NCBI GenBank assembly: GCA_030627905.1
Contig: DAOVRZ010000016.1
Span: forward strand, 1,897-65,896
From: Halanaerobiales bacterium
GTDB taxonomy: Bacteria > Bacillota > Halanaerobiia > DY22613
DNA: 64,000 nt
Direction: 5' to 3'
The notes below the pieces were generated by a model. That model was given only the letters and a program-made list of their open reading frames with translations, ran no database searches and had not been told where the DNA came from. Shown one piece after another: positions 4,900-35,460 of the stretch (the stretch's first letter is position 1; every line of letters begins with the position of its first letter). The translations under genes were made by a program, and so were the position numbers.

Positions 4900-5014
4900 A
4901 TCTTTTGAGTTAAGACCCCCACTTATAGAAGTGGGGGGAATTGTTTTTAATCTTCAGTGGGGGTAGAATCCCCTACTGAAGCCCCGATGTTCAGCTTTAG
5001 CTGGACGAGTTCAC
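4900..5014 (-). repeat. Family-1 intergenic repeat (115 bp, triple hairpin), copy 1
   Basis: Near-identical by eye to 11761-11875, 14647-14761, 26235-26349 and 35359-35460. Starts 6 nt after the dnaN stop. Confidence 0.9.
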
Positions 5015-5020
5015 TTTTAC

Positions 5021-6127
5021 TTATGAACGAATTGGGCTAATTACATAGGTATATTTAACATCACTCATTGGACGTAAAATAAATGGGCTAAGTTTACCTC
5101 CAAAACATAGTTCTACTTCGTCACTATCAATTACTTTTAAACCATCCATAAGATAAGTTGCATTAAAAGAAACTTCTACATCAGGACCCTCCATTTGAAT
5201 TGGTAATTCTTCATGTGCATGACCAATTTCGGAGTTTGTTGATTCTAAAATCATTACTCCATTATTAATATTAGCTTTAATAATATTTGAATTAGATATA
5301 GCAATAAGAGAAACTCTTTTTCCAGCTTGAAGTAATTCTTTTCTATTTACTTTCGCAAATGTATTAGAGTTTTTTGGAATAACTGGTTCATAATTTGGGA
5401 ATTTACCCTCGATTAAACGAGAAATTATTATTATATTTTCCATTTCAAAAAGTATTTGATTCATACTCATTTGAATTTGAACTCTACTTTCAGGATCATC
5501 ATCTAAAAGTCTCGTCAATTCATCTAAGGTCTTATTTGGAAGAATAACTTCAATCAATTCAACGACTTCATTCTCTAGTTTAGCCATTCTATGTGCTAAA
5601 CGATATGTGTTGGTCGATACTACATTTAATTCATCTCCAATAATTTTTAATAAAGCTCCATTTAAAAATGGCTGAGTCTCGTCATTTGAAGTAGCAATCT
5701 TTACTTGTTCAAATGTTTTCTTCAACAACATTTGATTAACTGAAAGTTGCATTCCTTCTTCTATCTTAGGTAATAAAGGAAAATCATCTGCAAGGTATCC
5801 ATTAATATTATATCTCGATTTTCCACAAATTATTTCTGCAGACTTTGTACTTAAATTACAATTTACCTCTATATCTATAGATGGTAGCTCACGAATAATG
5901 CTAGAAAGATGATTAGCAGGTAAAACAATTTCTCCTTTGGTAATAATTTCTGCATTAATATAACATTCTATACCTATTTCTAAATCTGTTGCTACTAATT
6001 TTAATTGATTATTTTCAGTCTTAATTAAAATTCCAGACAAAATCGGTAAGGTATTTTTGTTAGAAACAGCTCTTTGTACAATTTGAATTCCTTGGAGAAA
6101 TGTTTTTTGTGATACATTAAATTTCAC
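5021..6127 (-). CDS. dnaN: DNA polymerase III beta sliding clamp
   Basis: ORF 5021-6157. The likely start is GTG at 6127 (VKFNVSQKTFL...), preceded by AAGGAGG with a 7-nt spacer. Three-domain clamp length; downstream of dnaA. Confidence 0.95.
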   Translation of the reverse strand: MKFNVSQKTFLQGIQIVQRAVSNKNTLPILSGILIKTENNQLKLVATDLEIGIECYINAEIITKGEIVLPANHLSSIIRELPSIDIEVNCNLSTKSAEIICGKSRYNINGYLADDFPLLPKIEEGMQLSVNQMLLKKTFEQVKIATSNDETQPFLNGALLKIIGDELNVVSTNTYRLAHRMAKLENEVVELIEVILPNKTLDELTRLLDDDPESRVQIQMSMNQILFEMENIIIISRLIEGKFPNYEPVIPKNSNTFAKVNRKELLQAGKRVSLIAISNSNIIKANINNGVMILESTNSEIGHAHEELPIQMEGPDVEVSFNATYLMDGLKVIDSDEVELCFGGKLSPFILRPMSDVKYTYVISPIRS

Positions 6128-6157
6128 TTTGATAACCTCCTTAAATATTTTTTCCAC

Positions 6158-6391
6158 AAGTAACTGTACAGGTCATATATAATTATTTTATTTAGTATAA
6201 TTAGTTGTAATAGCAGTAGAGGGTGTGAAAGATGGGGAAAAGTCTATAAGCTTATGTCAGTTATTGATTTGTAGGTGTGTATAATGTGTGAAAGAAGGGC
6301 ATGTACTTATCCACATATTCAGAACTTATAAAATGAACGAATTTTATACACAAACTGTACACAAGTTATGCCCCTTTTATTCACGTATAGT
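6158..6391. other. oriC, dnaA-dnaN spacer part (DnaA boxes plus AT-rich putative unwinding region)
   Basis: Perfect TTATCCACA at 6307-6315. One-mismatch boxes at 6276-6284 (TGTGTATAA) and 6344-6352 (TTATACACA). AT-rich stretch atataattattttatttagtataattag at about 6176-6205. Confidence 0.7.
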
Positions 6392-7753
6392 TTATCCATT
6401 TTGTATTTTTTCAATGATCTTATCTATAATATTTTTAAATGATCTGTCTTGTTCTAGTTTACCACTAATTTTATTATAAGCATGGATTACAGTAGTATGG
6501 TCTCGACCACCAAATTTTTCTCCAATCTGTGGTAAAGAAGAATCAGTTAATTCTCTGGAAATATACATTGCAATTTGACGTGGAAAAGCTATAGATTGAG
6601 TACGGGCTTTAGAAGTCATATCTTTAAGTTTGAGACCATAATACTCTGTGATAACTTCCTGGATTAACTTGATAGAGATTTCTCTTGGTTTTGCATTCGG
6701 AAGAATATCTTTAAGAGCTTCTCTAGCTAGTTCTTCAGTAATTTTTTTATTAATTAAGGAAGAATAAGCTACAACCCGAATCAAGGCACCTTCTAATTCA
6801 CGAATGTTTGATTTAATATGATGAGCAATATAAACAATAGCTTCATTTGGCACTTGTAAGTTTTCTATACTGGCTTTTTTCCGCAATATTGCAATTCTTG
6901 TTTCGAAATCAGGTTTTTGAATATCAGTGATTAATCCCCACTCAAATCGTGAACGCAATCTAGCCTCTAAAGTAGGGATTTCTTTAGGGGTCCGGTCACT
7001 TGACAGGATAATTTGCTTGTTTGCTTCATGTAGAGTGTTAAAGGTATGGAAGAATTCTTCTTGAGTTCGCTCTTTGCCAGCAACAAATTGAATATCATCC
7101 ACTAACAAGACATCAATACTACGATATTTATTCCTAAACTCTGCTGTTTTATCATCACGAATAGAATTGATTAATTCATTTGTGAAAGTTTCTGATGAAA
7201 TATAAACAACCTTGGTATTTGGTGAATGTTTTAATATATAATGCCCAATAGCCTGCATTATATGTGTTTTTCCTAAGCCAACATCACCGTAAATAAATAG
7301 CGGGTTATAAGCTTTGGCTGGAGCTTCTGAGACAGCTAAAGATGCAGCATGTGCAAATCTATTGTTATTTCCTACTACAAAAGTATCAAAAGTGTATTTA
7401 GGATTTAGAGAAGTAATTGGATTAGAAATTATTTGCTCTTCAGGTCTTTTTTTTGTAGAATTTTGCTTAAATTGTTCATTATCAGTAAGGTTTTCTTTAG
7501 AATTAGGTGTAACAAAAGAAATTTTAAAGTCTTCTTTTGTGATCTGATATAAAGTATCTTTGATTAATTCGACGTATCGAGATTCCAGCCATTCTCGGGA
7601 AAATTCATTTGGTACTTGAATGATAATTTGATTTTGGTCAATAGACACTATTTCAGTTAATTTGAACCAGGTATCAAAACTAGGTTTACTTAATTTAGAT
7701 TTGATAATTTTTAAGGCTTCATCCCAGATGAATGAATTTTTCTTCTTAGTCAT
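6392..7753 (-). CDS. dnaA: Chromosomal replication initiator DnaA
   Basis: ORF 6392-7792. The likely start is ATG at 7753 ([14 protein letters not shown]), preceded by GGGAGG. AAA+ Walker [10 protein letters not shown] and C-terminal box-binding domain ([12 protein letters not shown]). Confidence 0.97.
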
Positions 7754-7792
7754 AAATAATCCTCCCATATGGCTAATAAAATTTCTTTCCAC

Positions 7793-8210
7793 AATTTATT
7801 CACATTGTGTGGATAAATGAGTGTGTATAAGAACTATGCATCCCTTTTTAAATAGCAGAGGGGCTTGAATAGGAATTTTCATTAGTCAATTTACAAGATA
7901 TAAAGATAGACTACACATAATATCCACAAAAATAGAGTTGGAACAGATTTATTCACACCCTATTGATAAAATAAAGGCTTTTTGTGGATAAAGAAAAATT
8001 ATACACAAAAAACCCCTTCACCTATGAGTTATTCACACTTTATGCACATTATGTGGATAAAGTGTGAATTAGCGTTTGCTGAACCTTGTCGCTTCTAAAG
8101 ACAAATCACTTTAATCATATCAAACTATTCACAGATTATCAACAATTAATTTTAACTCGTCAACATTTTTTTCACAAAATAGACTAGCAATTATATCTGT
8201 TGATAACTTT
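7793..8210. other. oriC, dnaA-upstream DnaA-box cluster
   Basis: Perfect TGTGGATAA at 7808-7816, 7983-7991 and 8052-8060. One-mismatch boxes at 7796-7804, 7822-7830, 7920-7928, 7949-7957, 7999-8007, 8029-8037, 8040-8048, 8136-8144 and 8198-8206. Confidence 0.85.
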
Positions 8211-8230
8211 AAACTCCTTGAAGCTATGAC

Positions 8231-8260
8231 TTGACATAGTGTGTGAGTCTGCCATATAAT
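8231..8260 (+). promoter_or_regulatory. Sigma-A-type promoter upstream of rnpA
   Basis: TTGACA (8231-8236), 18-nt spacer, TATAAT (8255-8260). Confidence 0.55.
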
Positions 8261-8348
8261 TCTGATTAGACTCGAAAATGGTATATATTCGCTTGAAAGG
8301 AGGAAAGCTTAAGTTATTAACAGGTAAAATAAGGAGGATTCATTTTTT

Positions 8349-8699
8349 GTGAAGATTAAGAGCGCAAAGTTGAGGAAGAATCGTGAGTTTCAGCGAGTAT
8401 ATAAATTTGGGAAATCCTTTGCGAATAAAATACTTGTTGTTTATGTTTTTTATCATCCACAAAATTCTGAAAGAAGAGTTGGGTTTACAGTTAGTAAAAA
8501 GTTTGGTAATGCAGTGAAGAGAAACAGACTAAAACGATTAATGAAAGAGGCTTATCGACTGAATCAATATCAGATTCAGGATGGAATAGATTTAATTTTT
8601 CTTCCTAGACAAAGAATTATTGGAGCAAAATTCAAAGAGATTGAAAAAGGTATGACAAAGTTGTTTTCAAAAGCAGGAATTTTAAAGAAAGATAAATAA
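8349..8699 (+). CDS. rnpA: Ribonuclease P protein component
   Basis: 116-aa basic ORF with GTG start after AAGGAGGA. Contains the RNase P protein RNR motif (KKFGNAVKRNRLKRLMKEAYR). Followed by yidD-yidC. Confidence 0.93.
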   Translation: MKIKSAKLRKNREFQRVYKFGKSFANKILVVYVFYHPQNSERRVGFTVSKKFGNAVKRNRLKRLMKEAYRLNQYQIQDGIDLIFLPRQRIIGAKFKEIEKGMTKLFSKAGILKKDK

Positions 8700-8720
8700 C
8701 TATATCAAGAGGGAATTGTT

Positions 8721-8933
8721 ATGATTAAAAAGTTAATCATCTTAGTAATCAAATTTTATCAAAAATTTATATCTCCAATTAAACCAGGTAAATGTCGATT
8801 TTATCCAACTTGTTCTCAATATATGCTCCAGGCCGTTGAAAAATATGGTGCTTTTAAAGGTTTTGTTTTAGGAATGAAAAGAATATTGAAATGTCATCCT
8901 TTTCACCCAGGAGGATATGACCCATTAAAATAA
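8721..8933 (+). CDS. yidD: Membrane protein insertion efficiency factor YidD
   Basis: 70-aa ORF with the YidD signature (YQKFISP...[10 protein letters not shown]...HPGGYDP). Confidence 0.93.
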
Positions 8934-8955
8934 ACAATGTTGAGGAGGTTATATT

Positions 8956-9627
8956 TTGTTACAGTACTTTATTGTTGGTGTTAACCTAAACCCCGTAAGT
9001 TGGTTAGGTGGTTTAATGGCTGAGGCTTTAAAGATTTTATTTACCTTGACAAGTAATTGGGGTGTAGCAATTATTCTTTTTACTTTAATAGTGAAGTTGG
9101 CTCTTCATCCATTGAACAAAAAACAGATGAATTCTATGAAAGTTATGCAAGAACTTCAACCAGAGATTGAGAATTTAAAAAAGAAATATAAAGGTGATAA
9201 ACAGCAAGTTCAGGTTAAGATGATGGAACTTTATAAGGAGAAAGGTTATAATCCTGCAGCAGGTTGTTTACCTCTTTTAGTTCAATTACCTATTCTTTGG
9301 GCTTTATTTGGATCTATTCGAGGATTGGCAGAGTTGGAGCACGCTAAGTTTTTATGGTTAGATAGTCTTTCCAAAACAGGTGATCTGACTTTGATTATTT
9401 TAACAGCTATTGTTACCTTTGGACAATCATATTTACAGCAAAAACTTACTCCTAATTCTTCAAACCAAAATGCGATGATGTTATATATGATGCCTATTAT
9501 GATTATCTTTATTGGGAGGACACTCCCAGCAGGTCTTCTCCTTTATTGGTTTACCTCAACTTTGGTTATGACAGTTCAACAGTTTTTAATGTATAGAGAA
9601 CCAGGTTTAAAGGGGGATGCGAAATAA
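8956..9627 (+). CDS. yidC: Membrane protein insertase YidC/SpoIIIJ family
   Basis: 223-aa polytopic ORF with 60-kDa inner membrane insertase core motifs (NWGVAIILFTLIVKL, YKEKGYNPAAGCLPLLVQLPI). Confidence 0.9.
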   Translation: MLQYFIVGVNLNPVSWLGGLMAEALKILFTLTSNWGVAIILFTLIVKLALHPLNKKQMNSMKVMQELQPEIENLKKKYKGDKQQVQVKMMELYKEKGYNPAAGCLPLLVQLPILWALFGSIRGLAELEHAKFLWLDSLSKTGDLTLIILTAIVTFGQSYLQQKLTPNSSNQNAMMLYMMPIMIIFIGRTLPAGLLLYWFTSTLVMTVQQFLMYREPGLKGDAK

Positions 9628-10258
9628 AATGGCAAGTTCTCTGAGACAAAAAGGTAAGACCGTTGATTTTGCGATTGAAGAAGCTTTACGTATACTGGGT
9701 GTGACTAAAGATAAAGTTGATGTTACTGTTATTGATGAAGGAAAATCAGGATTTTTCGGTTTTTTTGGTTCTCGTGATGCTCTTGTGGAAGTGACAATTA
9801 AAGAGACAAAAGTTGATCGAGCTATTCAGTTTTTAGAAAATGTTATGAAGAAAATGGGAATGGAAGTTAAAGTAGAACTCGTTGGGGATTCAGAAGCGCA
9901 AGATCAGATAAAGTTAAATTTAGTGGGAGAAAATTTAGGAATTCTTATAGGTCATCGTGGGAATACTCTGGATTCTCTTCAATACCTTGCTTCATTGGTT
10001 GCTAATAAAGATGGTGAAAAATATGTCAGAATTGTTTTAGATGCTGAAGGATATCGTCAACGTAGAAAAGATACCTTATTTCAATTGGCACAAAGATTGG
10101 CTGAAAAAGCTAGAGCTACTAGAAGAAAAGTTGTATTGGAACCTATGCCTCCGCATGAAAGAAGAATTATTCATCTAGCTTTACAGGAAGAAAAAAATAT
10201 TAAGACATATAGTGAAGGGCGTGAGCCTTATCGTAAAGTAATTATTGTAGCTAACTAA
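9617..10258 (+). CDS. jag: Jag (SpoIIIJ-associated) KH/R3H RNA-binding protein
   Basis: N-terminal Jag_N (KGKTVDFAIEEALRILGV), KH and C-terminal R3H (EPMPPHERRIIHLAL). The start may be ATG at 9629. Confidence 0.9.
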   Translation: MRNKMASSLRQKGKTVDFAIEEALRILGVTKDKVDVTVIDEGKSGFFGFFGSRDALVEVTIKETKVDRAIQFLENVMKKMGMEVKVELVGDSEAQDQIKLNLVGENLGILIGHRGNTLDSLQYLASLVANKDGEKYVRIVLDAEGYRQRRKDTLFQLAQRLAEKARATRRKVVLEPMPPHERRIIHLALQEEKNIKTYSEGREPYRKVIIVAN

Positions 10259-10273
10259 ATAAAGATGTGCAGT

Positions 10274-10303
10274 AAACCCAGTAGGGCTAATCTCTGCTGG
10301 GTT
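10274..10303 (+). terminator. Hairpin downstream of jag
   Basis: aaacccag...ctgggttt stem. The T-tract is weak. Confidence 0.4.
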
Positions 10304-10384
10304 TCACTACTTTATATTACAAATTAATTATTTTCATAAATATTTTTAGGGATGGTTATCTTATAAAGTAAGGAGGGGAGAGAA

Positions 10385-11764
10385 ATGTACGTACGCGATA
10401 CTATTACTGCCATTTCCACTCCCATTGGAGAAGCTGGATTAGGCATTATTAGAGTTAGTGGAGATCAGGCAGTCGAGATTGTTGATAAGATTTTTAGAGG
10501 AAAAAAGAAACTCTCAGAGACTGGTACTTATCAAGCCAGATATGGAAATATTTTAGATTTAAAGACTGATAAAAAAATTGATGAAGTTGTTTGCCTTTTA
10601 ATGCGTTCTCCTCGTTCGTTTACAGGTGAAAATGTTGTTGAAGTAGGTTGTCATGGAGGAATTATACCTATAAGACGAATTACGAATGCAATTTTAGATG
10701 CTGGAGCTAGGCTTGCTGAGCCTGGCGAGTTTTCAAAAAGAGCTTTTTTGAATGGGCGAATTGACTTAACACAGGCTGAGGCGATTATTGAAATCATTAC
10801 TTCACACACTGAAACTGCGATGGATGTTGCTGTGAAACAATTAGAAGGTGGTCTTTCGAATAAAATCAGCAATCTTCGACAAAAATTAATCGGAGTTATG
10901 GCTCATTTGGAGGCCGCTTTGGATTTTCCTGAGGATGAGATTGAAGGTTTTTCAGAAATTGAGATCAGAAATCATTTGTCTGAAGTAATTGTTGAAGTTG
11001 AAAAGCTTTTAAAGACAGGGAAAACTGGGAAGATTTATCGTGAAGGGATCAAAACTATTATTGCAGGTAGACCAAATGTAGGTAAATCAAGTCTGTTGAA
11101 TGCTTTGTTACAAGAACAGCGGGCAATTGTTACAGATATTCCAGGTACAACTCGGGATGTCATTGAAGAAATGATTAATCTTGGAGGAGTTCCTTTAAAA
11201 CTAGTAGACACAGCTGGAATTCGTGAGACAGAAGATTTAATTGAACAAATGGGTGTGGAAAAAAGCAAAGAATTTTTGAATCGCGCAGATCTGGTATTAT
11301 TAGTTCTTGATGCTAGTAGTGGGTTAGATTCAGAAGATCGTCAGATTATTGAAATGGCACGGAATAAAAAAATGATTGTCGTTATTAATAAAACGGATTT
11401 AGAAACTCAATTTGACGAATCTGAATTGAGAGATTTATTACCTGCTAAAAGAATTGTAAAAACATCTATGGTTGAAGATATTGGTTTAGATCAATTGACT
11501 AATGCTATTATTGAGATGATTTTTGATGGTGAAGTTGTCTCTACTGATCAGACAATTATCACCAATCTTAGACACCAACGTGCTATTGAAGAATCATTAA
11601 CAAATCTTATGAGAGCAAAAGAAAGTTTAGAAGCGAATATGCCTTATGATTTTGTAACAATTGATCTAAAAACTGGTCTTGATTATCTTGGTCGGGTTAC
11701 AGGTGAGTCCCTCACAGAAGATATTATTGATCAAATTTTTGCTGAATTTTGTCTAGGTAAGTGA
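10385..11764 (+). CDS. mnmE: tRNA modification GTPase MnmE
   Basis: 459-aa ORF with G domain GRPNVGKSSLLN, DTAG, NKTD and the C-terminal FCLGK motif. Confidence 0.96.
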   Translation: MYVRDTITAISTPIGEAGLGIIRVSGDQAVEIVDKIFRGKKKLSETGTYQARYGNILDLKTDKKIDEVVCLLMRSPRSFTGENVVEVGCHGGIIPIRRITNAILDAGARLAEPGEFSKRAFLNGRIDLTQAEAIIEIITSHTETAMDVAVKQLEGGLSNKISNLRQKLIGVMAHLEAALDFPEDEIEGFSEIEIRNHLSEVIVEVEKLLKTGKTGKIYREGIKTIIAGRPNVGKSSLLNALLQEQRAIVTDIPGTTRDVIEEMINLGGVPLKLVDTAGIRETEDLIEQMGVEKSKEFLNRADLVLLVLDASSGLDSEDRQIIEMARNKKMIVVINKTDLETQFDESELRDLLPAKRIVKTSMVEDIGLDQLTNAIIEMIFDGEVVSTDQTIITNLRHQRAIEESLTNLMRAKESLEANMPYDFVTIDLKTGLDYLGRVTGESLTEDIIDQIFAEFCLGK

Positions 11765-11875
11765 ACTCGTTCAGCTAAAGCTGAACATCAGGGCTTCAGT
11801 GGAGGATTCTACCCCTACTGAAGATTAAAAACAATTTCTCCCACTTATAGAAGTGGGGGTCTTATCTAAAAAGAT
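11761..11875 (+). repeat. Family-1 intergenic repeat, copy 2
   Basis: Begins GTGAACTCG, so its first 4 nt overlap the last base of the Lys codon plus the mnmE TGA stop. See copy 1. Confidence 0.9.
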
Positions 11876-11921
11876 AAAAATTTATACAAGTGTGAATATA
11901 TCGGGGAAAGGATGTCTGAAA

Positions 11922-13814
11922 TTGGAGAAGTCAATCTTTACATATCCAACTTCTTATGATGTGATTATTATTGGGGCTGGACATGCTGGATGCGAAGCAG
12001 GCCTTGCATCCGCAAGAATGGGGATGAAAACGTTAGTTTTAACAATCAGTCTTGATCATGTGGCTTTTATGCCATGTAATCCTTCTATTGGTGGTCCTGC
12101 AAAAGCTCATATTGTTCGTGAGATTGATGCTTTGGGTGGTGAGATGGGTAAAAATATTGATGCTACCTCTATTCAAATCCGAATGCTAAATACTCGAAAA
12201 GGGCCAGCCGTTCATTCATTGCGAGCTCAAGCAGATAAAATAGAATATCATCGTCGAATGAAACAGGTATTAGAGAATACTCAAAATTTAGATTTGAAAC
12301 AAGCGGTTGTTGAAGATCTAGTCATAGAGAATGAGGAAGTGAAAGGTGTTATAACCAGGACTGGAGTTTATTTCCCAGGAAATAAAGTAATTTTAACCTC
12401 AGGTACTTTTTTAAGAGGGAAGATTATTATTGGTGAAGCTACTTTTGTATCTGGTCCAAACTTACAATATCCAGCTAATGAACTATCTCATTCTTTAAAA
12501 GAGTATGGAATTCGTCTTAGAAGATTTAAAACGGGAACCCCTCCAAGAGTGGATGGAAAAACTTTAGATTTTGATAAAATGGAGATTCAAGAGGGAGACC
12601 TAGATTTAAAGTTTTCGTTTAATTCACCAGAACTAGAAATGCAATCAATTCCTTGTTGGTTGACTTATACAAATAATTATACTCATGATGTTATTCATGG
12701 GAATATGGATCGTGCCCCTTTATTTTGTGGAGATATTGAAGGGACTGGGCCAAGGTATTGTCCTTCTATTGAGGATAAAGTAACACGTTTTCCTGACAAA
12801 GAGAGACATCAGGTTTTTTTAGAACCCGAAAGTTTATCGACAAATGAATATTATGTTGCAGGTCTTTCTACGAGTTTACCCTATGATGTTCAATTGGGCT
12901 ATCTTAGAACAATTCCAGGGATGGAAAATGTAGAAATAGCAAGACCTGGCTATGCAATTGAGTACGATTGTCTGGATCCTACTCAATTGAAACCGACGTT
13001 GGAAACTAAAGTTCTTAAAGGGCTATACACTGCTGGACAGGTTAATGGAACTTCTGGATATGAAGAAGCTGCTGGGCAGGGATTAATGGCTGGCATTAAC
13101 GCTGTTTTGGCTATTTGCGGTGATGAACCTCTAGTATTGAAACGTTCAGAAGCTTACTTGGGAGTATTAATCGATGATTTAGTGACAAAAGGAACCAATG
13201 AACCATATCGAATGCTCACTTCACGTGCAGAATATCGATTGATATTACGCCAAGATAATGCAGATCTTCGTTTGTCTGAGATTGGATTCCAAATTGGACT
13301 GCTAAAAGAAGAAGAATACCAAAAATACCTCACTAAACGAGAAGAGATTCAAAAAGGTCTAGAATATCTAAGTCAGGTTAGAATTAATCCAACGAATGAA
13401 GTAAAAGCAATTTTAGCTGAAATGGAAAGTGGTAAGCTACAAAAACCTGTTTCATTGGTTGATATTTTCCGCCGACCTGAACTTAGCTATGATGATTTAC
13501 GCAAACTAGATCCCAATTTATTAGATTTACCAAAAGTTGTGAAGGAACAATTAGAAATTGAGATAAAATATGAGGGATATATAAATAGGCAAATGAGTCA
13601 AATTCAAGCTTTTAAAAAGATGGAAGATAAAATATTACCAGTGGATACGGATTATGTGAATATGGTGAATATGAGAAAAGAGGCAAGAGAGAAGCTAGAT
13701 AATATTAAACCTCACTCATTAGGTCAAGCTTCTCGAATCTCTGGTGTATCTCCTGCAGATATTTCAGTATTAATGATTTATCTTGAAAAAATCGAAAAAG
13801 AAAAAACAAAATAA
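11922..13814 (+). CDS. mnmG: tRNA uridine 5-carboxymethylaminomethyl modification enzyme MnmG (GidA)
   Basis: FAD motif [15 protein letters not shown]. The ORF-track start (GTG 11853) lies inside the repeat element. A TTG at 11922 (after GAAAGGA) or GTG at 11892 is more plausible. The end is firm. Confidence 0.93.
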
Positions 13815-13827: not shown

Positions 13828-13829
13828 AG

Positions 13830-14640: not shown

Positions 14641-14646
14641 AGTTTT

Positions 14647-14761
14647 GTCTTTTGAGATAAGACCCCCACTTCTATAAGTGGGGGGAATTGTTTTTAATCT
14701 TCAGTAGGGGTAGAATCCCCTACTGAAGCCCCAATGTTCAGCTTTAGCTGGACGAGTTCAC
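14647..14761 (-). repeat. Family-1 intergenic repeat, copy 3
   Basis: Same 115-bp element, inverted relative to copies 2, 4 and 5. Confidence 0.9.
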
Positions 14762-26234: not shown

Positions 26235-26349
26235 GTGAACTCGTCCAGCTAAAGCTGAACATCGGGGCTTCAGTAGGGGATTCTACCCCCACTGAAGATT
26301 AAAAACAATTCCCACCACTTATAGAAGTGGGGGTCTTAACTCAAAAGAT
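26235..26349 (+). repeat. Family-1 intergenic repeat, copy 4
   Basis: Starts 4 nt after the upstream stop codon. Confidence 0.9.
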
Positions 26350-26509
26350 AAAACGGTAAAATAATTATTAGCTTTTTCTTTATTTCTAAGAGAAAGCCTT
26401 CTTAAGATGTGCAGGAAAATGCTAACCTGTTAAAGAAGTTTATGATATTATACAGCTTGAATTGAAATAAATTAGGATATATTAAAGAGGTAAAAATAAG
26501 GGAGAGTGA

Positions 26510-27043: not shown

Positions 27044-27055
27044 GGGGGTGTATTG

Positions 27056-27247: not shown

Positions 27248-27260
27248 TGGGGGGAGTAAA

Positions 27261-28355: not shown

Positions 28356-28393
28356 TAAAGTCGATGTAATAACTACGTTATTACATCTTAAGT

Positions 28394-28503
28394 TTAACAA
28401 CTTTCGGAAGGAGATTTCGCCCCTTCAAAGAAGTAGACTTTCTCTGAAGTTTATCCCTACTTACAGAAGTTTGGGGATTTATACCTTCCGGAAATGTTGT
28501 TAA
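28394..28503 (-). repeat. Family-2 MITE-like element, copy A
   Basis: Terminal inverted repeats ttaacaactttcggaagg / ccttccggaaatgttgttaa. Homologous, in reverse orientation, to 31933-32037. Confidence 0.8.
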
Positions 28504-28506
28504 AGC

Positions 28507-28536
28507 TTGACAAATCAAAGCTGGAAATGATATAAT
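28507..28536 (+). promoter_or_regulatory. Sigma-A-type promoter of the rpsF operon
   Basis: TTGACA (28507-28512), 18-nt spacer, TATAAT (28531-28536). Confidence 0.6.
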
Positions 28537-28616
28537 ACGTCTGTTGTAGATTTTCTATTAATCCATGCTCTGTACATGGATACAGAGCCTTAGGCCGAGT
28601 GGAGGAGGTGAAAGTG

Positions 28617-28904
28617 ATGAGAAAGTATGAAACTATTGCTATCATTAGCCCAGAATTAGATGAAGCTGCGATCACAGCAACTATTGATAAGATTAAAGAT
28701 ATTATTACTAACAATAGTGGTGAAGTAGTAAAGGTTGATAACTGGGGAACTAAGAGATTGGCATATGATGTGAAAAAGCATCGTTCTGGTTACTATACTT
28801 GCATTAATTTTAATGCAGTAAATGAAACAATTGACGAGTTGAACAGAAACTATCGTATTACGGATTCTGTAATTAAGTCTATTATTGTACGTCTAGACGA
28901 TTAA
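28617..28904 (+). CDS. rpsF: 30S ribosomal protein S6
   Basis: [16 protein letters not shown]... after GGAGGAGG. The ORF-track start at 28599 is probably too early. Confidence 0.95.
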
Positions 28905-28944
28905 TTTTGGTTATTCTAAGAATTATTATAAGGAGGGGGTTTGT

Positions 28945-29190
28945 GTGTTAAATAGAATAATATTGATTGGCCGTTTAACACGAGATCCAGAGTTGCGTTA
29001 TACCACAAATGGAACTGCAGTAGCTTCGTTTGCACTTGCGGTTGAGCGTCCTTTTGTGAACCAACAAAGTGGTCAACGTGATGCGGATTTTATTGATGTG
29101 GTTGTTTGGCGTAAAATGGCTGAGACTTGCGCAAATCATTTAGGCAAAGGACGTTTAGTTGCTGTTGAAGGCCGTTTACAAATCCGTTCT
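28945..29190 (+). CDS. ssb: Single-stranded DNA-binding protein, exon 1 (82 codons)
   Basis: [33 protein letters not shown]...[11 protein letters not shown] is an OB fold. The sequence diverges exactly where GTGCG begins. Confidence 0.9.
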
Positions 29191-31764
29191 GTGCGTCCGT
29201 ACGGGCGTTTAGTGAATCTACCTTTAGCAGGGTAGCAGGTTAGGTCGCATACTTGAAAATCTGTCATCAGCCGACTTATCCGTAAGGGAAACCAAGCGGG
29301 GAGTGTAGCATGTCGGTAAAGTCATAAGTTGGTTAGTCACTAAGCCACGACTGAATGGCGAGATGAAAAGTTACGAATGAGGATGAAAGCTAAACTGCTT
29401 GAATGATAGTCTGAGGGGGATTAGTTTGGCCTATGACGTAAAGTGGCTATAAACGTCATACAGTTCAGAATAATTTACATAAGAGCGGTGAATTATTCAA
29501 AAAGGATACAGGCCATAGGATCGAGTCTGTATCAGTGACCCTGAACTGCCCATCTTTAGTATAAAGAAAAAGGCAAAAGTCACATCCGACATCGTAATAA
29601 GCTGGTCACTAAACGTACTAAACGGAGATTACCTAAGTTGGATTGCCCAAAATGGGCTATGACTATAAGTAGTCTGAATATCTAATATGGTAACGGAGGT
29701 CTCGTAGTAGTCGGAGATAGGGAAAACCTATTACATGGCGAAGGGGAACAGTTTATCGGTTTAATACAAAATTGGGAAGGTGCGTGAGGCACTATGAGAA
29801 GTCCAAAAGTAGTATTAGACAATTTAGCTTCCAAGGCAAAGACCGTCAATTATAAATATCAACGACTATATAGAAACCTTTACAACATTGAACTCTACCT
29901 TGAAGCATATGCAAGAATATATGCTAACCAAGGCAACATGACACAAGGTACTGATGGGAACACTGTCGATGATATGAGTATTAATAGAATCCAAAGAATC
30001 ATTAATAAGTTAAAAAACCAAAGCTACCAACCTAATCCTGCAAGAAGGGTCTATATACCCAAGAAAAACGGTAGCCAAAGACCTTTAGGGATTCCATCTA
30101 TTGACGACAAACTAGTTCAGGAAATCGTTAGAAGGATTCTGGAAGCCATATATGAAAGCACGTTTTCCAATAAAACGCATGGATTCAGACCGAACAGAAG
30201 CTGTCATACAGCTTTAGAGGAAATTAGAACAACATATACGGGAATTAAATGGTGGCTGGAAGGAGATATTAAAGGCTTCTTTGACAACATTGACCATCAT
30301 ATTCTAATTAACATCCTCAGAAGGAGAATTGATGACGAAAAGTTCATTGATCTCATATGGAAGTTTCTTAAAGCTGGATACATGGAAGAATGGAAATTTC
30401 ATAACACCTATAGCGGTACACCACAAGGCGGCACCATAAGTCCAATTTTGTCGAATATCTATCTAAACGAATTGGATAAATATATGGAAGAATATAAGAA
30501 GAAATTCGATAAAGGAAAAACGAAACAGAGAAGCACAGCATATCGGACAGCCTGCCAAAGAACAGAAAGACTACGTGCGAAATATAAGAAGATATGGCAC
30601 AACTTAAGTGATGAGGAAAAACAACAAGCCATTAAAGAAGTTAAGAAGCTACAAAAGGAAGTGCAGAAACTCCCACGTACAGACCCGCAAGATGGGAGAT
30701 ACAAAAGGTTACAGTATACAAGGTATGCGGATGACTTCTTAATAGGTATTATAGGTAGTAAGGATGATGCTAGAAAGATTAAACAAGACCTTACAATCTT
30801 TCTTATGGATAATCTAAAGTTAGAGTTATCCCAAAGAAAAACCCTTATCACTAACAGTAGAAATAAAGCCAGATTCCTGGGTTACGACATACAGGTAGAT
30901 AGATCTAATAAACCGAAAGTAGCTACAGATGGAATACCAAGAAGAACTTTTAACTTAAAAGTTAGATTACTAATGCCAATGGAAAAATGGAGGGATAAGC
31001 TCCTACAACTCCAAGCAATGGAAATCGACAAGAATGATAAATGGATTCCTATGCATAGACGATATTTAGTCAACAATGATGACCTTGAAATAATCAGCAC
31101 TTATAATGCAGAAATTAGAGGGTTCTATAACTACTATAAACTAGCCCTGAATGTTAGCAATCTGAATAAATTTCATTATGTCATGAAGTTCAGTTTGCTG
31201 AAAACCTATGCCAATAAGTATAGATCAACAATCAAGAAAATGAAGAAAAAGTTTAACGTTGATGGTGAAATAGGAGTTCGATACCGAACAAAAGAAGAAG
31301 AGAAAATTCGCTTCTTTTATAATAAAGGGTATAAAATACAGAGGCTAGAGAAAAAAGCAAATGAAAATGTTGACAATTTGCCTAATATAACGATATATAG
31401 TGGCAGAACGAGTCTAATTGATAGACTACTAGCAGGTAAATGTGAATGGTGTGGTGTAGAGGATGTACCAATTCACATGCATCATGTTAGAAAGTTGAAG
31501 GACTTGCAAGGCAAAAAGCGATGGGAGCAATTAATGATTGGTAGAAAGCGTAAAACCCTTGCTTTATGTCAGTCATGTCACAAAGATTTGCATAATGGAA
31601 TGCTAGATTGATAAACGGAGAGCCGTATACGCTGAGAGGTGTACGTACGGTTCGGAGGGGAGTTCAGGAAAACCTACTTTAAGAAACCATGTTGAAACTC
31701 GTATAGAACATATGACTAGACGAGGGCGGTTGAATTAAGGAAAGGCGTCTGGTTCTTACCCTAC
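29191..31764 (+). mobile_element. Group II intron (2574 nt) with RT-maturase-HNH ORF
   Basis: 5' GTGCG. Domain V GAGCCGTATACGCTGAGAGGTGTACGTACGGTTC at 31620-31653. The 3' end is ...CCCTAC. The flanking exons join in frame. Confidence 0.9.
29794..31611 (+). CDS. ltrA: Group II intron reverse transcriptase/maturase with HNH endonuclease domain
   Basis: RT motifs (RPLGIPSIDDKLVQE, GTPQGGTISPILSNIYL, YTRYADDFLIG), X/thumb domain, and C-terminal CEWCG...HMHHV...CQSCHKDLH. Confidence 0.95.
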   Translation: MRSPKVVLDNLASKAKTVNYKYQRLYRNLYNIELYLEAYARIYANQGNMTQGTDGNTVDDMSINRIQRIINKLKNQSYQPNPARRVYIPKKNGSQRPLGIPSIDDKLVQEIVRRILEAIYESTFSNKTHGFRPNRSCHTALEEIRTTYTGIKWWLEGDIKGFFDNIDHHILINILRRRIDDEKFIDLIWKFLKAGYMEEWKFHNTYSGTPQGGTISPILSNIYLNELDKYMEEYKKKFDKGKTKQRSTAYRTACQRTERLRAKYKKIWHNLSDEEKQQAIKEVKKLQKEVQKLPRTDPQDGRYKRLQYTRYADDFLIGIIGSKDDARKIKQDLTIFLMDNLKLELSQRKTLITNSRNKARFLGYDIQVDRSNKPKVATDGIPRRTFNLKVRLLMPMEKWRDKLLQLQAMEIDKNDKWIPMHRRYLVNNDDLEIISTYNAEIRGFYNYYKLALNVSNLNKFHYVMKFSLLKTYANKYRSTIKKMKKKFNVDGEIGVRYRTKEEEKIRFFYNKGYKIQRLEKKANENVDNLPNITIYSGRTSLIDRLLAGKCEWCGVEDVPIHMHHVRKLKDLQGKKRWEQLMIGRKRKTLALCQSCHKDLHNGMLD

Positions 31765-31932
31765 TATGATGATAGCAATGGTATTCGTCGGAAAGTGGCA
31801 GAAGTTGTTGCTGATAATGTACGATTCCTAGATTGGCCAAAAGATGGTTCTTCTCAGAGTGGTAATAAGTCTAACAATCAGAATAATGATGATTTAGGTA
31901 GTTTCGGTGACGATATAGATGTTCCATTTTAA
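31765..31932 (+). CDS. ssb: Single-stranded DNA-binding protein, exon 2 (55 codons plus stop)
   Basis: YDDSNGIRRKVAEVVADNVRFLDWP...DDLGSFGDDIDVPF* has the acidic SSB C-terminal tip. Confidence 0.88.
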   Translation, partial: YDDSNGIRRKVAEVVADNVRFLDWPKDGSSQSGNKSNNQNNDDLGSFGDDIDVPF

Positions 31933-32037
31933 TAACATTTTCGGAAGGCATAAATCTCCCCAACTTTCGTAAGTGGGGGTAAACTATCTTTCTAGAATTA
32001 TATTTAGGTAGGAATTAAAATTCCTTCCGAAATGTTA
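31933..32037 (+). repeat. Family-2 MITE-like element, copy B
   Basis: TIRs taacattttcggaagg / ccttccgaaatgtta. Starts at the nucleotide after the ssb stop codon. Confidence 0.8.
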
Positions 32038-32102
32038 TTTAATCTTCTATGAAGATTTTAAAGCTGCTTGCAGATTATTAATATTAGAGGGAGGGAATAA
32101 TT

Positions 32103-32333
32103 ATGGCACCTCGTGGTGGAAGAAAAGGTCGTAGAAAAGCTTGTGCTTTTTGTGTAGATAAAGTAAAAGATATTGACTATAAAGAGATTGGCCGTTTAAG
32201 AAGATATGTTACTGAACGTGGTAAAATTTTACCTCGTCGTATTTCTGGAAACTGTGCGAGTCATCAGCGTCAGTTGACTAGAGCGATTAAAAGAGCTCGT
32301 AATATTGCTTTGTTACCTTTTACAACTGAATAA
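32103..32333 (+). CDS. rpsR: 30S ribosomal protein S18
   Basis: 76-aa ORF with [42 protein letters not shown]. Confidence 0.96.
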
Positions 32334-32342
32334 TAAGAATTT

Positions 32343-32370
32343 AGGGGGCTAACTTTTTAGCCTCCTTTTT
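32343..32370 (+). terminator. Rho-independent terminator after rpsR
   Basis: agggggct aacttttt agcctcct followed by tttt. Confidence 0.7.
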
Positions 32371-32468
32371 GTGTTTATGCCCTTAGTTTTTCTAAATTAT
32401 TGCAGGACTTTCGGAATATTTAACGAAATGTATAATGGCTTACAATAATGTATTGAAAGGGTGAGAGA

Positions 32469-32798
32469 ATGAATCCAGTTCGAAATGGAAAACTTAAGTT
32501 AAATATAACTAGAAATATAAAGACGATTGAATGGTTAAAAGCTGAGTTGGTTGATGGGGTTTCATCTCTCTTTAAAGCAATGATTCCGAATAGAGAAAAT
32601 ATAATAATTAATTCACTGGTTCGGTTGATAATTGCAGCTTACGTTTTAGGAAGAAGGTTGGGTTTTACATATGAACGAATTGAGGGAGAACTTGAGTGTC
32701 AGATTGATGAACTTATTGAAGATAAACATGAAATTGACCAATGGTTTGGAGATTTGAGTGGATTAAAGAGGCATTTGCAAGAGAGAAATAAATTTTAA
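32469..32798 (+). CDS. Hypothetical 109-aa helical protein (possibly MazG-like family)
   Basis: ORF with a GGGTGAG RBS-like sequence upstream. The family assignment is from weak recall only. Confidence 0.35.
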   Translation: MNPVRNGKLKLNITRNIKTIEWLKAELVDGVSSLFKAMIPNRENIIINSLVRLIIAAYVLGRRLGFTYERIEGELECQIDELIEDKHEIDQWFGDLSGLKRHLQERNKF

Positions 32799-32881
32799 TT
32801 TAGCTGGAATGAATTGTTAGTCAAATATGATTGTCAACAAGTCAAAGTTGAGATATAATTTTTATATGGGGGGATATAGTC

Positions 32882-33325
32882 ATGAAAGTTATACTGTTAA
32901 AAAATGTAAAAAATGTTGGTAAAGAAGGTCAAGTACTGAACGTAACTGATGGATATGGTCGCAATTATTTAATTCCTCGTGGCTTAGCAAAAGAAGCTAC
33001 TGAAGGTAGTTTGGCTGATTTGAAACATATACAAAAGATAACTGAGAAGAAGAAAGAGAAAGAGTTAAAAGAAGCTCAAAAACTTAAAAAACAATTAGAA
33101 GAAACAGTCCTAGAAATCAAAGTGAAGGCTGGCAGTGGCGGTCGTTTATTCGGGTCTGTTACAAATTCTGATATTGCGGGGGTTTTGAAGAAAAAGGGTT
33201 ATAAAGTAGACAAAAGGAAAATTCAATTAAAAGAAAATATCAAAGAATTAGGTGAACACACTGTGATTATTAAATTACACAGTGATGTCATCGCATCCAT
33301 CGAAGTGAAAGTGATGGAGATATAG
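32882..33325 (+). CDS. rplI: 50S ribosomal protein L9
   Basis: MKVILLKNVKNVGKEGQVLNVTDGYGRNYLIPRGLA, the canonical L9 N-terminus. Confidence 0.96.
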   Translation: MKVILLKNVKNVGKEGQVLNVTDGYGRNYLIPRGLAKEATEGSLADLKHIQKITEKKKEKELKEAQKLKKQLEETVLEIKVKAGSGGRLFGSVTNSDIAGVLKKKGYKVDKRKIQLKENIKELGEHTVIIKLHSDVIASIEVKVMEI

Positions 33326-33338
33326 AAAGGGGCAAAAG

Positions 33339-35291
33339 ATGAAGGATTTAATTCGACGGATCTTCAATAAAGATGGTCTGGATGAGCATGAGTTAGAGCT
33401 AAATCAGTTACGTCGACAGATTACTGCAATTTATAGTTTAATTTCGAATTTATATGGTGCAGATAAATTAGTCTTAAAAGCAGGTAAGTTGGAAGCGTTG
33501 AATTTGATGCGTTCGACAAAAATTGCTGACCGTGTTTTAGCATTACAAAGAATTGTGTTTGAAGATCCTACTATCGATGGAATTCTAGAAGAAAAGGAAA
33601 TTCCACGGATTATTGATGAGATTAATGAAGAAATTGCCGATATTATTGCACGTAAAACTGTTGAAGATAAAATTGAACGTCAGATTTCAGAGAAAATGCA
33701 AGAAAAACATAATGAATATATTCAAGAGATTAAAAGACAAATAATTCGCGAATCTGAAGGAGGAACGGAAAGTCCTCAAACTCTTAAGAAATACGCTGAG
33801 CTAGAGAAGTTAGAGGCTAAAGGTCTTTCACGGTCAGCAATGGAGTTACTTCGTCCAGTTTCTTTAGAAGAAATTGTTGGTCAAGAAAGAGCCATTAAAG
33901 CATTAATGTCTAAAATTGCTTCTCCTTTTCCACAGCATGTTATTTTATATGGGCCTCCTGGAGTTGGGAAAACTACGGCTGCTCGCTTAGCATTAGAGGC
34001 TGCAAAAAAAATGTCTCGACCCCCTTTTGATGAAGATGCGAAATTTATAGAAATAGATGGTACAACCATTAGGTGGGATCCAAGGGAAGTAACAAATCCT
34101 TTGCTTGGATCTGTTCATGATCCAATCTATCAGGGTGCAAAAAGGAGTTTTGCTGATACAGGTATCCCAGAACCTAAACCAGGTTTAGTTACCGAAGCAC
34201 ATGGTGGAGTTCTCTTTATTGATGAGTTGGGTGAGATGGATCCAATGCTCCAAAACAAACTTTTGAAAGTATTAGAGGATAAACGAGCTTATTTTGAGTC
34301 ATCATATTATGACCCTACAGATAAGAATGTGCCTCAGTATATTAAAAAGCTATTTGATGAAGGAGCACCAGCAGATTTTATTTTGATTGGTGCAACTACA
34401 CGTGATCCAGGTGAGATTAGTCCTGCGTTTAGATCTCGATCTGCTGAGGTGTTTTTTGAACCTTTGACATCAGAGGATATTACAAAAATTGTTCATAACG
34501 CTGGTGAAAAGTTGAATGTAGAGTTGGAGCCTGGTGTAGCTGAAGTTGTGAGTCTTTATACTATTGAAGGACGTAAAGCGGTTAATATTTTAGCTGATGC
34601 TTATAGTCTAGCATTATATGATTTAGGTAATACAATAGATAAAGAGGAAAAACCTAAAATACGAATAACTAAAGATTTAATTTATGAAGTGGCTCAGATC
34701 AGTCGTTTGACTCCTTATGTTAGTGTTAAGGCTTCTGATACGTTGGAAGTTGGTAAAATTTTTGGTCTGGGTGTAAGTGGTTATTTGGGATCAGTGATTG
34801 AAATTGAAGCGATTGCTTTTCCATCAACAGAAAAGGGAAAAGGTCGTCTACGTTTTAATGAAACTGCTGGTAGTATGGCGAAAGATTCTGTTTTTAATGC
34901 AGCATCAGTTGTTAGAAAACTGACAGGTAAAGATATTGCCGATTATGATATTCATGTAAATATAGTTGGTGGAGGTCGGATTGATGGTCCTTCTGCTGGT
35001 ACAGCGATTCTTTTAGCAATTATAAGTGCTATCGAAAAACGTCCAATCCGTCAAGATATTGCAATTACAGGTGAAATTTCTATTCAAGGACAAGTTAAGC
35101 CAGTTGGTGGAGTTTTTGAAAAAATTTATGGTGCACGTCAAGCGGGAATTAGACAGGTTTTTGTTCCAAAAGATAATGCAAAGGATGTACCAAGTGATTG
35201 TGATGATTTAGAAGTTATGATAGCAGATCGTGTGGAGGATATTATTGATATTGTAATGCCTCCAGTAAAAGAAAATATAAAGGTAAGTTAA
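33339..35291 (+). CDS. Lon-family ATP-dependent protease (LonC-type, sporulation-associated)
   Basis: AAA+ Walker A GPPGVGKTT, Walker B VLFIDELGEMD, and C-terminal Lon protease domain with DGPSAGTAILLAI. Confidence 0.85.
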   Translation: MKDLIRRIFNKDGLDEHELELNQLRRQITAIYSLISNLYGADKLVLKAGKLEALNLMRSTKIADRVLALQRIVFEDPTIDGILEEKEIPRIIDEINEEIADIIARKTVEDKIERQISEKMQEKHNEYIQEIKRQIIRESEGGTESPQTLKKYAELEKLEAKGLSRSAMELLRPVSLEEIVGQERAIKALMSKIASPFPQHVILYGPPGVGKTTAARLALEAAKKMSRPPFDEDAKFIEIDGTTIRWDPREVTNPLLGSVHDPIYQGAKRSFADTGIPEPKPGLVTEAHGGVLFIDELGEMDPMLQNKLLKVLEDKRAYFESSYYDPTDKNVPQYIKKLFDEGAPADFILIGATTRDPGEISPAFRSRSAEVFFEPLTSEDITKIVHNAGEKLNVELEPGVAEVVSLYTIEGRKAVNILADAYSLALYDLGNTIDKEEKPKIRITKDLIYEVAQISRLTPYVSVKASDTLEVGKIFGLGVSGYLGSVIEIEAIAFPSTEKGKGRLRFNETAGSMAKDSVFNAASVVRKLTGKDIADYDIHVNIVGGGRIDGPSAGTAILLAIISAIEKRPIRQDIAITGEISIQGQVKPVGGVFEKIYGARQAGIRQVFVPKDNAKDVPSDCDDLEVMIADRVEDIIDIVMPPVKENIKVS

Positions 35292-35322
35292 AGTCGAGAT
35301 ATAACTACGTGAAAATGTTTTT

Positions 35323-35351
35323 AAAGCCAGTGCAAAAGCACTGGCTTTTTT
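35323..35351 (+). terminator. Rho-independent terminator after the lon-family gene
   Basis: aaagccagtgc aaaa gcactggcttt followed by ttt. Confidence 0.8.
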
Positions 35352-35358
35352 CATGAAA

Positions 35359-35460
35359 GTGAACTCGTCCAGCTAAAGCTGAACATCGGGGCTTCAGTAG
35401 GGGATTCTATTAAAAACAATTCCCACCACTTATAGAAGTGGGGGTCTTAACTCAAAAGAT
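35359..35460 (+). repeat. Family-1 intergenic repeat, copy 5 (13-nt internal deletion)
   Basis: Lacks the 3' arm of hairpin 2 (cccccactgaaga). Otherwise almost identical to copy 4. Confidence 0.85.

Follow-up and report, generated by a model that had tools for sequence, protein, structure and literature searches.

What are five near-identical, hairpin-rich repeats doing in the gaps between genes around a bacterial replication origin, most of them just behind a gene and one starting on a stop codon? The question is raised by a 64,000-nt stretch of the genome of a Halanaerobiales bacterium (assembly GCA_030627905.1, contig DAOVRZ010000016.1, positions 1,897 to 65,896 of the forward strand), referred to here as the window. 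We conclude that each copy is very probably a palindrome-associated transposable element (PATE), that is, the gene-less, fused ends of an insertion sequence (IS) of the IS200/IS605 family, from the TTTAT/TTCAC group. The family is new in the sense that it was previously uncatalogued; the kind of element is already known.

Five copies near the replication origin

The window covers the replication-origin region (gyrB-recF-dnaN-dnaA, then rnpA-yidC-jag-mnmE-mnmG-rsmG-parB), and the GC skew switches sign at 6-8 kb. The nearest cultured relative is Anoxybacter fermentans, whose MnmE is 76% identical. A first-pass annotation made from the sequence had reported five copies of the repeat, and these are real and lie where it placed them. 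Three sub-patterns of its consensus gave four to five matches each, all at the reported copies, with 0.00 expected from 100 dinucleotide-preserving shuffles, and an independent repeat search of the window returned the same five copies at 91-98% identity. The five fall within 31 kb, and none occurs across the following 29 kb. Their starts had been drawn correctly, but their 3' ends lay 2 nt too far out, in flanking DNA; the insert, as fixed by empty sites together with family alignments, measures 113 nt. The 13-nt internal deletion described for copy 5 is present in the alignment and takes out the 3' arm of the middle hairpin. The annotation's placement of copies 1, 2 and 4 relative to neighboring stop codons also held, as did its count of four of five copies in sense orientation. 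Strands below are those of its consensus; the strand called "top" for IS605 elements is the opposite one. The copies, with the target-adjacent motifs (TAMs) and other motifs beside them, are as follows.

4902-5014, minus strand: copy 1, 113 nt, between dnaN and an S4-like yaaA gene, 6 nt past the dnaN stop; its left-end (LE) hairpin has a loop inverted with respect to that of the other copies.
4897-4901, plus strand: TAM of copy 1, TTTAT, abutting the left end and already present at the empty site in locus L108 of a sister genome (AAAA^ATAAAC on the other strand).
11761-11873, plus strand: copy 2, 113 nt, between mnmE and mnmG; the TGA at 11762-11764 (bases 2-4 of the element) is the present mnmE stop.
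11874-11878, minus strand: TAM of copy 2, ATAAA on the plus strand and hence TTTAT on the minus strand, abutting the left end.
14649-14761, minus strand: copy 3, 113 nt, between rsmG and a noc/parB-like gene, antisense to both.
14644-14648, plus strand: left-flank motif of copy 3, TTTGT.
26235-26347, plus strand: copy 4, 113 nt, 4 nt past the stop of a gene for a ykvI-like membrane protein, with ATAAA at 26348-26352.
35359-35458, plus strand: copy 5, 100 nt, 67 nt past a gene for a Lon-like protease, with the flank ATTAA (35459-35463).

Empty sites and the insertion target

The sister metagenome-assembled genome (MAG) GCA_942490635.1, represented by loci L108 and L113, is syntenic with the window over the origin region (MnmE 83% identical to that of the window) and lacks the element across it. 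A check for insertion-site polymorphism, proposed in the first-pass annotation and run against this genome, found copies 1, 2 and 4 missing at their orthologous sites, that of copy 4 lying in L113. Comparison with L108 provides two exact empty/filled pairs (the element in parentheses, the insertion point marked by a caret).

End of mnmE: empty in L108, ...GGT AAA TAG AAT...; filled in the window, ...GGT AA(G TGA AC......AAAAAG)A TAA AAA...
Downstream of dnaN: empty in L108, ...AAGAAAA^ATAAAC...; filled in the window, ...AAGTAAAA(GTGAAC...CAAAAG)ATAAAA...

The empty site at the end of mnmE reads GGTAA^ATAGA in both L108 and L109, a Lys-AAA codon followed by a TAG stop. In both pairs the insert spans GTGAAC to the final G, between an A and ATAAA or ATAGA, and is scarless, with no target-site duplication (TSD). 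The TAM is already present at the empty sites; it occurs on one strand and at the left end only, and the other flank keeps a single base.

Counts beyond the window refer to at least 104 loci that were obtained when 185,579 species genomes were scanned for the first 26 nt of the element. Of 114 distinct copies, 109 have an A immediately 5' of GTGAAC, with no further conservation upstream. In 67 distinct copies the 3' flank reads ATAAA 41 times, ATCAA 10 times and ATTAA 7 times (TTTAT, TTGAT and TTAAT on the top strand); ATAAA has a background frequency of 0.26% per position. The strand and 3' boundary of the first-pass reading therefore need to be corrected: ATAAA is the insertion target, seen as the TAM TTTAT on the opposite strand, and GTGAA is the complement of TTCAC, the transposon-encoded motif (TEM).

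These junctions bear directly on a classical miniature transposable element with inverted repeats (MITE) mobilized by a DDE transposase, which would likewise be small, non-coding, dispersed and structured. Terminal inverted repeats (TIRs) are absent, however, as the GTGAAC... and ...TTG/AAG termini are non-complementary, and there is no TSD at either exact pair. The junctions contradict a MITE, and we give it practically no chance. The first-pass annotation had itself reported that TIRs, target duplication and coding capacity are lacking, and the repeat search, the alignment and the junctions bear this out; the 113-nt element has stops in all frames.

Hairpins at both ends

Read on the top strand, the element runs from the TAM TTTAT in the flank (variants TTGAT and TTAAT) through a linker, the LE hairpin, a middle hairpin, the right-end (RE) hairpin and GAG to the terminal TTCAC. 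The linker, 10-13 nt long and ending in AAGA, separates the TAM from the LE hairpin, and the RE hairpin is set back 8 nt from the end. In copy 4 the parts are as follows.

26235-26260, minus strand: RE, with the hairpin GTTCAGC-TTTA-GCTGGAC (26243-26260), GAG and the terminal TTCAC (26235-26239).
26268-26297, minus strand: middle hairpin, 12 bp, which covaries among lineages and aligns with the distal part of an ISEfa4-like RE.
26312-26347, minus strand: LE, whose 13-nt linker (26334-26347) has TAAGA at its end and leads into the hairpin CCCCCACTT-CTAT-AAGTGGTGGG (26312-26333).

This LE arrangement resembles the LEs of ISEfa4 and of IS605 elements from Paenibacillus and Bacillus cereus.

The three hairpins that had been drawn for the element do fold, and do so on both strands (RNA z = -3.5 for the plus and -5.2 for the minus strand; single-stranded DNA (ssDNA) z = -4.9), but hairpin 1 is longer than stated, its stem being the 7-bp GTYCAGC/GCTGAAC; all window copies but one have a C.A mismatch in it. 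Both subterminal hairpins, LE and RE, fold as ssDNA. The covariation test suggested in the first-pass annotation, run on 38 distinct canonical copies, revealed structure-preserving compensatory changes. Pairing holds in 95% of cells, and compensatory double changes occur at six pairs (66 cells); the covariation score was reached by none of 500 column shuffles, and the signal was lost when the pairing partners were slid. Covariation is located in the LE and middle hairpins, whereas hairpin 1 is invariant because the search pattern forced it to be.

Maintained hairpins also speak for a rival explanation, in which the element is a host-selected, cis-acting RNA module of 3' untranslated regions (3' UTRs), kept for a role in the transcript as an mRNA stabilizer, a pause site or terminator, or a hairpin that stalls ribosomes at the stop. 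Besides the compensatory changes, this reading has in its favor that the strands are more stable than shuffled controls. However, the wobble pairs of the hairpins favor neither strand (26 A.C versus 19 G.T, a split uninformative about strand), and deletion derivatives of the element preserve the termini, not the hairpins. Nor did Rfam supply a match: nothing reached the gathering threshold on any window copy, and at E <= 10 the window copies and the long Desulfosporosinus copies gave chance-level matches only.

One hairpin carries a rearrangement. The flipped loop reported for hairpin 3, the LE hairpin, of copy 1 is present (CTAT versus ATAG). The stem is a perfect palindrome, and for this reason the flip is equivalent to an inversion of the whole hairpin top. 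It could be a single event, with two substitutions or an intra-strand template switch equally possible; the "palindrome flip-flop" seen in it by the first-pass annotation leans on one copy. On the top strand the flip replaces the CTAT-type loop that is common to the family, ISEfa4 and the Paenibacillus LE, and it may therefore inactivate the LE of copy 1.

Ends shared with IS200/IS605 elements

The overall layout matches that of the IS200/IS605 family: a one-strand TAM at the left end, subterminal hairpins, a related motif at the right end, and neither TIR nor TSD. The right end TTCAC differs from TTTAT at positions 3 and 5, and ISEfa4 also ends in TTCAC. In Geobacillus stearothermophilus, ISGst2 has the TAM TTTAT and the TEM TTCAC, which again differ at positions 3 and 5, and gene-less PATEs with the same ends are presumed to be mobilized in trans by the one TnpA that this genome has (bioRxiv 10.1101/2023.03.14.532601).

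For comparison of the ends, annotated IS605 elements were fetched from plasmids by a TnpB query. The boundaries of ISEfa4 (Enterococcus faecium, tnpA plus tnpB) were set from 565 records with differing contexts, and the element terminates in ...GAGTAGTTCAC/ (slashes mark element boundaries here and below).

ISEfa4: LE TTTAA/CAGAATTAGGCAGAAGTCG-(CCCATCCTCTATAGGTGGG); RE ...GCTCCCACTT...AAGTGGTGAGTAGTTCAC/
Paenibacillus element, tnpB only: LE TTTAT/CAATATTAAGCGAGAATA-(CTCCCATCCTCTGTAGGTGGGGG); RE ...GTGTTCAAC
B. cereus element, tnpB only: LE TTTAT/CATTTTAGCCAAGAAGA-(CTCCTTCCTCAAGGAG); RE ...GTAGTTCAAC
Element described here, Desulfotruncus version: LE TTTAT/CAAATTCCAAGA-(CTCCCACTTCTATAAGTGGGAG); RE ...GCTGAACGAGTTCAC/

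The Paenibacillus and B. cereus elements begin with TTTAT/...AAGA or AATA followed by a CTCC... hairpin. When four lineages of the element were aligned locally to the three IS elements, with 500 shuffles each, the LE halves scored z = 2.6-8.4 against the IS605 LEs (p <= 0.022 in 12 of 12 comparisons) and the RE halves gave p < 0.05 against the IS605 REs in 11 of 12. The alignments begin at the TAM and finish at the TEM. We therefore regard the element as the fused ends of a Bacillota IS605-type element, with an LE of about 37 nt and an RE of about 75 nt.

By analogy with the family, a Y1 HUH transposase (TnpA) acting in trans would bind the subterminal hairpins on ssDNA. It would cut after the TAM and after TTCAC, releasing the top strand as a circle, which would then be pasted 3' of another TT(T/G/A)AT with no target duplication ("peel and paste").

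Variation in the target is of interest in this respect. The flank ATTAA follows 5 of 13 GTCTC-type copies (LE linker ...CGAGA) versus 2 of 54 GTCTT-type copies (...CAAGA), and another GTCTC sub-lineage has the flanks ATGAA or ATGGA. Such a target shift, tracking a base of the LE linker, is what would be expected if the linker were a DNA guide that pairs with the target. The guides of IS608, AAAG (G_L) and GAAT (G_R), sit 5' of the hairpin feet, and ISGst elements likewise use pairing between linker guide and target (bioRxiv 10.1101/2023.03.14.532601). In the element, the 5 nt ahead of the hairpin feet are CAAGA (LE) and CGATG (RE), with A changed to G at the two positions where TTTAT and TTCAC differ by T to C. 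The TTAAT-target lineage with CGAGA does not fit pairing of guide and cleavage site as in IS608, and we consider such pairing in the element suggestive only.

Two other kinds of mobile element share part of this picture. An element of REP/REPIN type, spread by a domesticated REP-associated tyrosine transposase (RAYT) and not a true IS derivative, would also consist of multi-copy intergenic hairpins without TIR or TSD, and RAYTs are relatives of IS200/IS605 TnpA (PMC8266576). Yet the element has three different hairpins and asymmetric ends in place of a single GTAG-headed palindrome, forms no inverted doublets, inserts precisely beside TTTAT, and aligns at its ends to tnpB-bearing IS605 elements; in the fetched loci, no RAYT-like open reading frame (ORF) lies near the copies and none is flanked by the repeats. 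A REP/REPIN origin is thus very improbable. Derivation from another duplication-free, strand- or site-specific transposon, either rolling-circle IS91/ISCR-like or IS110-like, would account for asymmetric ends, zero TSD and a motif conserved at one flank only, and the GAAC/GTTC-like sequence at one terminus resembles what we take to be IS91 targets. The TAM/TEM pair and the ends, however, match IS605-family elements specifically, and no IS91- or IS110-like genes were seen nearby in the loci examined; we judge this derivation highly unlikely.

Several observations weigh against the identification as an IS605-type PATE. The first is the lack of a partner: no tnpA or tnpB was found in the 64-kb window, beside any copy, or in about 0.9 Mb of fetched loci. 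Searches by phmmer of the six-frame translations of all fetched DNA gave zero matches with TnpA (IS608) and TnpB (ISDra2) queries; of the two, only that for TnpB was validated, matching a Deinococcus tnpB at 82% identity and hitting 3,789 records. ORF clustering over 104 loci uncovered no recurrent transposase family, and Pfam searches of the ORFs adjoining copies without the other end recovered housekeeping genes in every case. When plasmids and phages were searched by blastn for the element or its RE, chance matches alone came back, with no full-length IS bearing these ends, and an exact-pattern scan of viral contigs gave 0 matches.

The second point is that the RE hairpin (GTTCAGC/GCTGAAC) is unrelated in sequence to the LE hairpin (CCCACTT/AAGTGGG). 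The two are alike in IS608 and ISEfa4, in which the same TnpA binds both; this likeness is a typical and not a defining feature of the family. The RE flanks do align to the ISEfa4 RE (CCCACT.AAG ... TCAG.TTTAGCT ... GAG..TTCAC) with different pairing partners, and from this alignment the RE of the element seems to have been remodeled. Third, in the window the putative active strand lies on the leading-strand template for four copies of five. In IS608 and ISDra2 the active strand is reportedly biased to the opposite, lagging-strand template, again a tendency and not a defining feature. Across the loci, with gene direction as a proxy, the strand split is 27:35, without bias, and ISGst2 excises from either template (bioRxiv 10.1101/2023.03.14.532601). 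The stop-codon niche, described below, forces this orientation in co-directional genes. Finally, the constancy of the RE across genera is partly an ascertainment artifact, as the collection scan demanded that 26-mer.

Stop codons and orientation

An ORF lies upstream on the same strand at 66 copies. It terminates at the TGA of the element in 18 of them and at TA+G in 6 (24 of 66), and the other two frames contribute 0. The reason lies in the target: its complement, A/ATAAA, contains TAA, and the complement of the right end is GTGA, so that insertion converts NAA/TAA A to NAG TGA. Last codons for Lys, Gln and Glu remain synonymous (NAA to NAG), and the element supplies a new stop. Such silent insertion into NAA-TAA stop sites is possibly general. 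In mnmE, the conserved C-terminal ...CLGK is intact despite copy 2. The right flank of readable stop-coupled copies is A+TAA, or A+TGA at a TTCAT-type site, which represents the displaced original stop; in the one exception, L099 (flank ATCAA), about 7 codons are truncated.

Stop codons are safe landing sites, and copies therefore start on stop codons and the sense orientation appears favored. When the stop-coupled class is left out, orientation is 42:39 relative to the adjacent gene and 27:35 relative to the local majority gene direction. Given this lack of bias, the orientation of four of five window copies toward the upstream gene reflects harmless insertion sites and not an RNA function.

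The RNA-module explanation can be taken up again here. In its favor, about one-fifth of copies have their start on a stop codon, which hairpin 1 follows at a distance of just 5 nt, a loose terminator scan picks up hairpin 3, and some copies are kept at orthologous sites among related Desulfosporosinus species. Against this, gene-relative orientation is unbiased once the stop-codon class is removed, copies are missing at the orthologous sites of the sister genome, and the flanks bear a transposon target motif. We consider a host-selected RNA module quite improbable. In the list of roles offered by the first-pass annotation, the non-autonomous mobile element stands, whereas a 3'-UTR stabilizer or terminator is not supported as the primary explanation, on the grounds of orientation and empty orthologous sites. 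A terminator reading of hairpin 3 was rejected, the hairpin being flagged by the loose scan only and on both strands. Secondary effects of copies on neighboring genes are possible.

A further idea, which we think unlikely but worth stating, is that the TTTAT/TTCAC clade of IS605 elements has adapted to stop codons as a niche, with silent insertion into the antisense strand and hairpins 5 nt behind the stop that could tune termination or mRNA decay, or that longer forms of the element still encode a working omega RNA. If so, the omega RNA guide would be antisense to the 3' end of the upstream gene, and TnpB supplied in trans could re-install excised copies.

Distribution and variation of the family

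The distribution of the repeat, which the first-pass annotation had suggested surveying, proved broad. The genome scan, followed by an nhmmer profile, revealed more than 110 copies across several orders of Bacillota among the matches listed; the profile marks 144 segments within the loci, often several per 8 kb. Carriers among the matches listed include several Desulfosporosinus species, Acididesulfobacillus, Desulfotruncus, a Halothermothrix MAG, Clostridiaceae, Oscillospiraceae and other Bacillota MAGs. A literature search with 11-15-mers of the element found no relevant paper.

The family is modular. In the orientation of the first-pass consensus, the 5' module is constant, and hairpins 2 and 3 vary with compensating changes. 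In many Desulfosporosinus copies, extra hairpins are nested in hairpin 2 to give a multi-branch structure of about 180 nt. Internal deletions are common and retain both termini, the smallest form consisting of the RE (5' module) plus 3 nt; the termini survive because they are the parts that the transposase needs.

At three pairs of orthologous sites in Desulfosporosinus species (L036/L004, L051/L103 and L016/L085), the element is present in each locus and the internal modules differ (e.g., 102 versus 161 nt). Internal hairpins were therefore gained or lost in place after insertion, and orthologous retention with differing internal structure shows that some Desulfosporosinus copies are old. Near-identical copies within one MAG suggest recent activity there. 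In two other assemblies of the window organism, contigs break inside copies (L107 1-27 and 6772-6799; L106 9652-9685). The repeat is thus a cause of fragmentation in short-read assemblies, and the breaks indicate that the organism probably carries many copies genome-wide.

A different hairpin-rich insert occurs in the sister genome between gyrA and gyrB (L108 617-739), a position at which the window lacks it. Its CCACCCCCACCTATAGAAGAGGGG hairpin sits within GACTTCAGAAGG/CCTTCTGAAATGTC arms. The match to the element profile is weak (E = 5e-5), and the insert may be distantly related or belong to another PATE family.

Implications

No new mechanism is revealed by these elements. They provide an annotation rule for repeats of anaerobic Bacillota: look for TTTAT, hairpins and TTCAC in this order, reading the other strand. 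They also explain, without invoking function, how a single-strand transposon comes to start on stop codons, a pattern that, left unexplained, might be taken for a recoding or 3'-UTR signal. For the study of TnpA requirements, the family offers natural end variants with lineage-specific targets, 113-nt minimal substrates and a deletion series.

Other features of the window

At 28945-31932 a group II intron splits ssb of the rpsF-ssb-rpsR operon. Exon 1 ends in ...GRLQIRS near 29218, and exon 2 resumes with YDDSNGIRRK... near 31768 and continues to the conserved DDIDVPF tail. The intron carries an ORF for a reverse transcriptase/maturase/HNH protein (29794-31611), and Rfam places domains V-VI at 31618-31764. 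In the sister genome (L113), SSB is uninterrupted at 146 aa.

Two Fic-domain genes flank an AbiEi/AbiEii toxin-antitoxin pair at 57985-61907. Direct repeats of 300 nt (58282-58581 and 61203-61502, 91%) and 97 nt (59119-59215 and 61804-61900, 96%) occur in this region, which looks like a duplicated defense or addiction island.

The sole sizable minus-strand block on the right replichore (45486-49110) encodes a DnaB helicase, a DnaC/IstB-like loader and a DnaD/DnaB_2-like protein, and coincides with a dip in GC skew (0.07 versus about 0.26). Also near the origin, a cluster resembling polyketide or polyunsaturated fatty acid synthases (39305-45225) includes ketoacyl synthases, an acyltransferase-ketoreductase multidomain protein and dehydratases, and is preceded by a phosphopantetheinyl transferase gene.

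Comparison with known systems

REP/BIME, BOX, RUP, ERIC and Correia repeats are, like the element, short, structured, multi-copy, mostly intergenic and co-transcribed with their neighbors, and the modularity of BOX resembles the variable internal hairpins seen here. Correia, RUP and ERIC have TIRs and TSDs, and REP is a single palindrome. We know of none of these repeats that is defined by a TTTAT target together with a TTCAC terminus.

The omega RNA of TnpB is a scaffold of about 100-150 nt that ends at the RE boundary and is transcribed toward the flank. Judged by length, the RE of the window copies (about 75 nt) is probably too short to encode one. The long Desulfosporosinus forms have an RE of about 140 nt with conserved extra hairpins and a multi-branch fold. 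PATEs often carry omega RNAs (bioRxiv 10.1101/2023.03.14.532601).

Among elements whose ends we compared, ISEfa4 and the IS605 elements of Paenibacillus polymyxa and B. cereus plasmids share with the element a TTTAA or TTTAT left flank and an LE linker ending in AAG(A/T)C. They also share a CCCA..TGGG-type hairpin after the linker, with a CTAT- or CTGT-containing loop, and REs that end in (G/T)AGTTCA(A)C. Unlike the element, they are 1.3-1.9 kb long and carry genes and a long RE that presumably encodes an omega RNA; overall identity is low and similarity is confined to the ends.

Within the order of the window organism itself, Halanaerobium hydrogeniformans has IS605 copies and a PATE-like element with a 28-nt LE containing a hairpin plus an RE (PMC7290912). 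That element, which we liken to ours by its description only, is a single 271-nt copy that includes 58 nt of tnpB (PMC7290912), in contrast to the multi-copy and far shorter family described here.

The closest counterparts in design are ISGst2 and the PATEs of G. stearothermophilus related to ISGst1 and ISGst5, which likewise combine the TAM TTTAT, the TEM TTCAC, subterminal hairpins and scarless insertion, the PATEs being ends only and presumably mobilized by TnpA in trans (bioRxiv 10.1101/2023.03.14.532601); this likeness is one of motifs and layout. The element differs from them in its hosts, which are Halanaerobiales, Desulfosporosinus and other anaerobic Bacillota, in its very short length of 113 nt, and in an RE hairpin unlike that of the LE.

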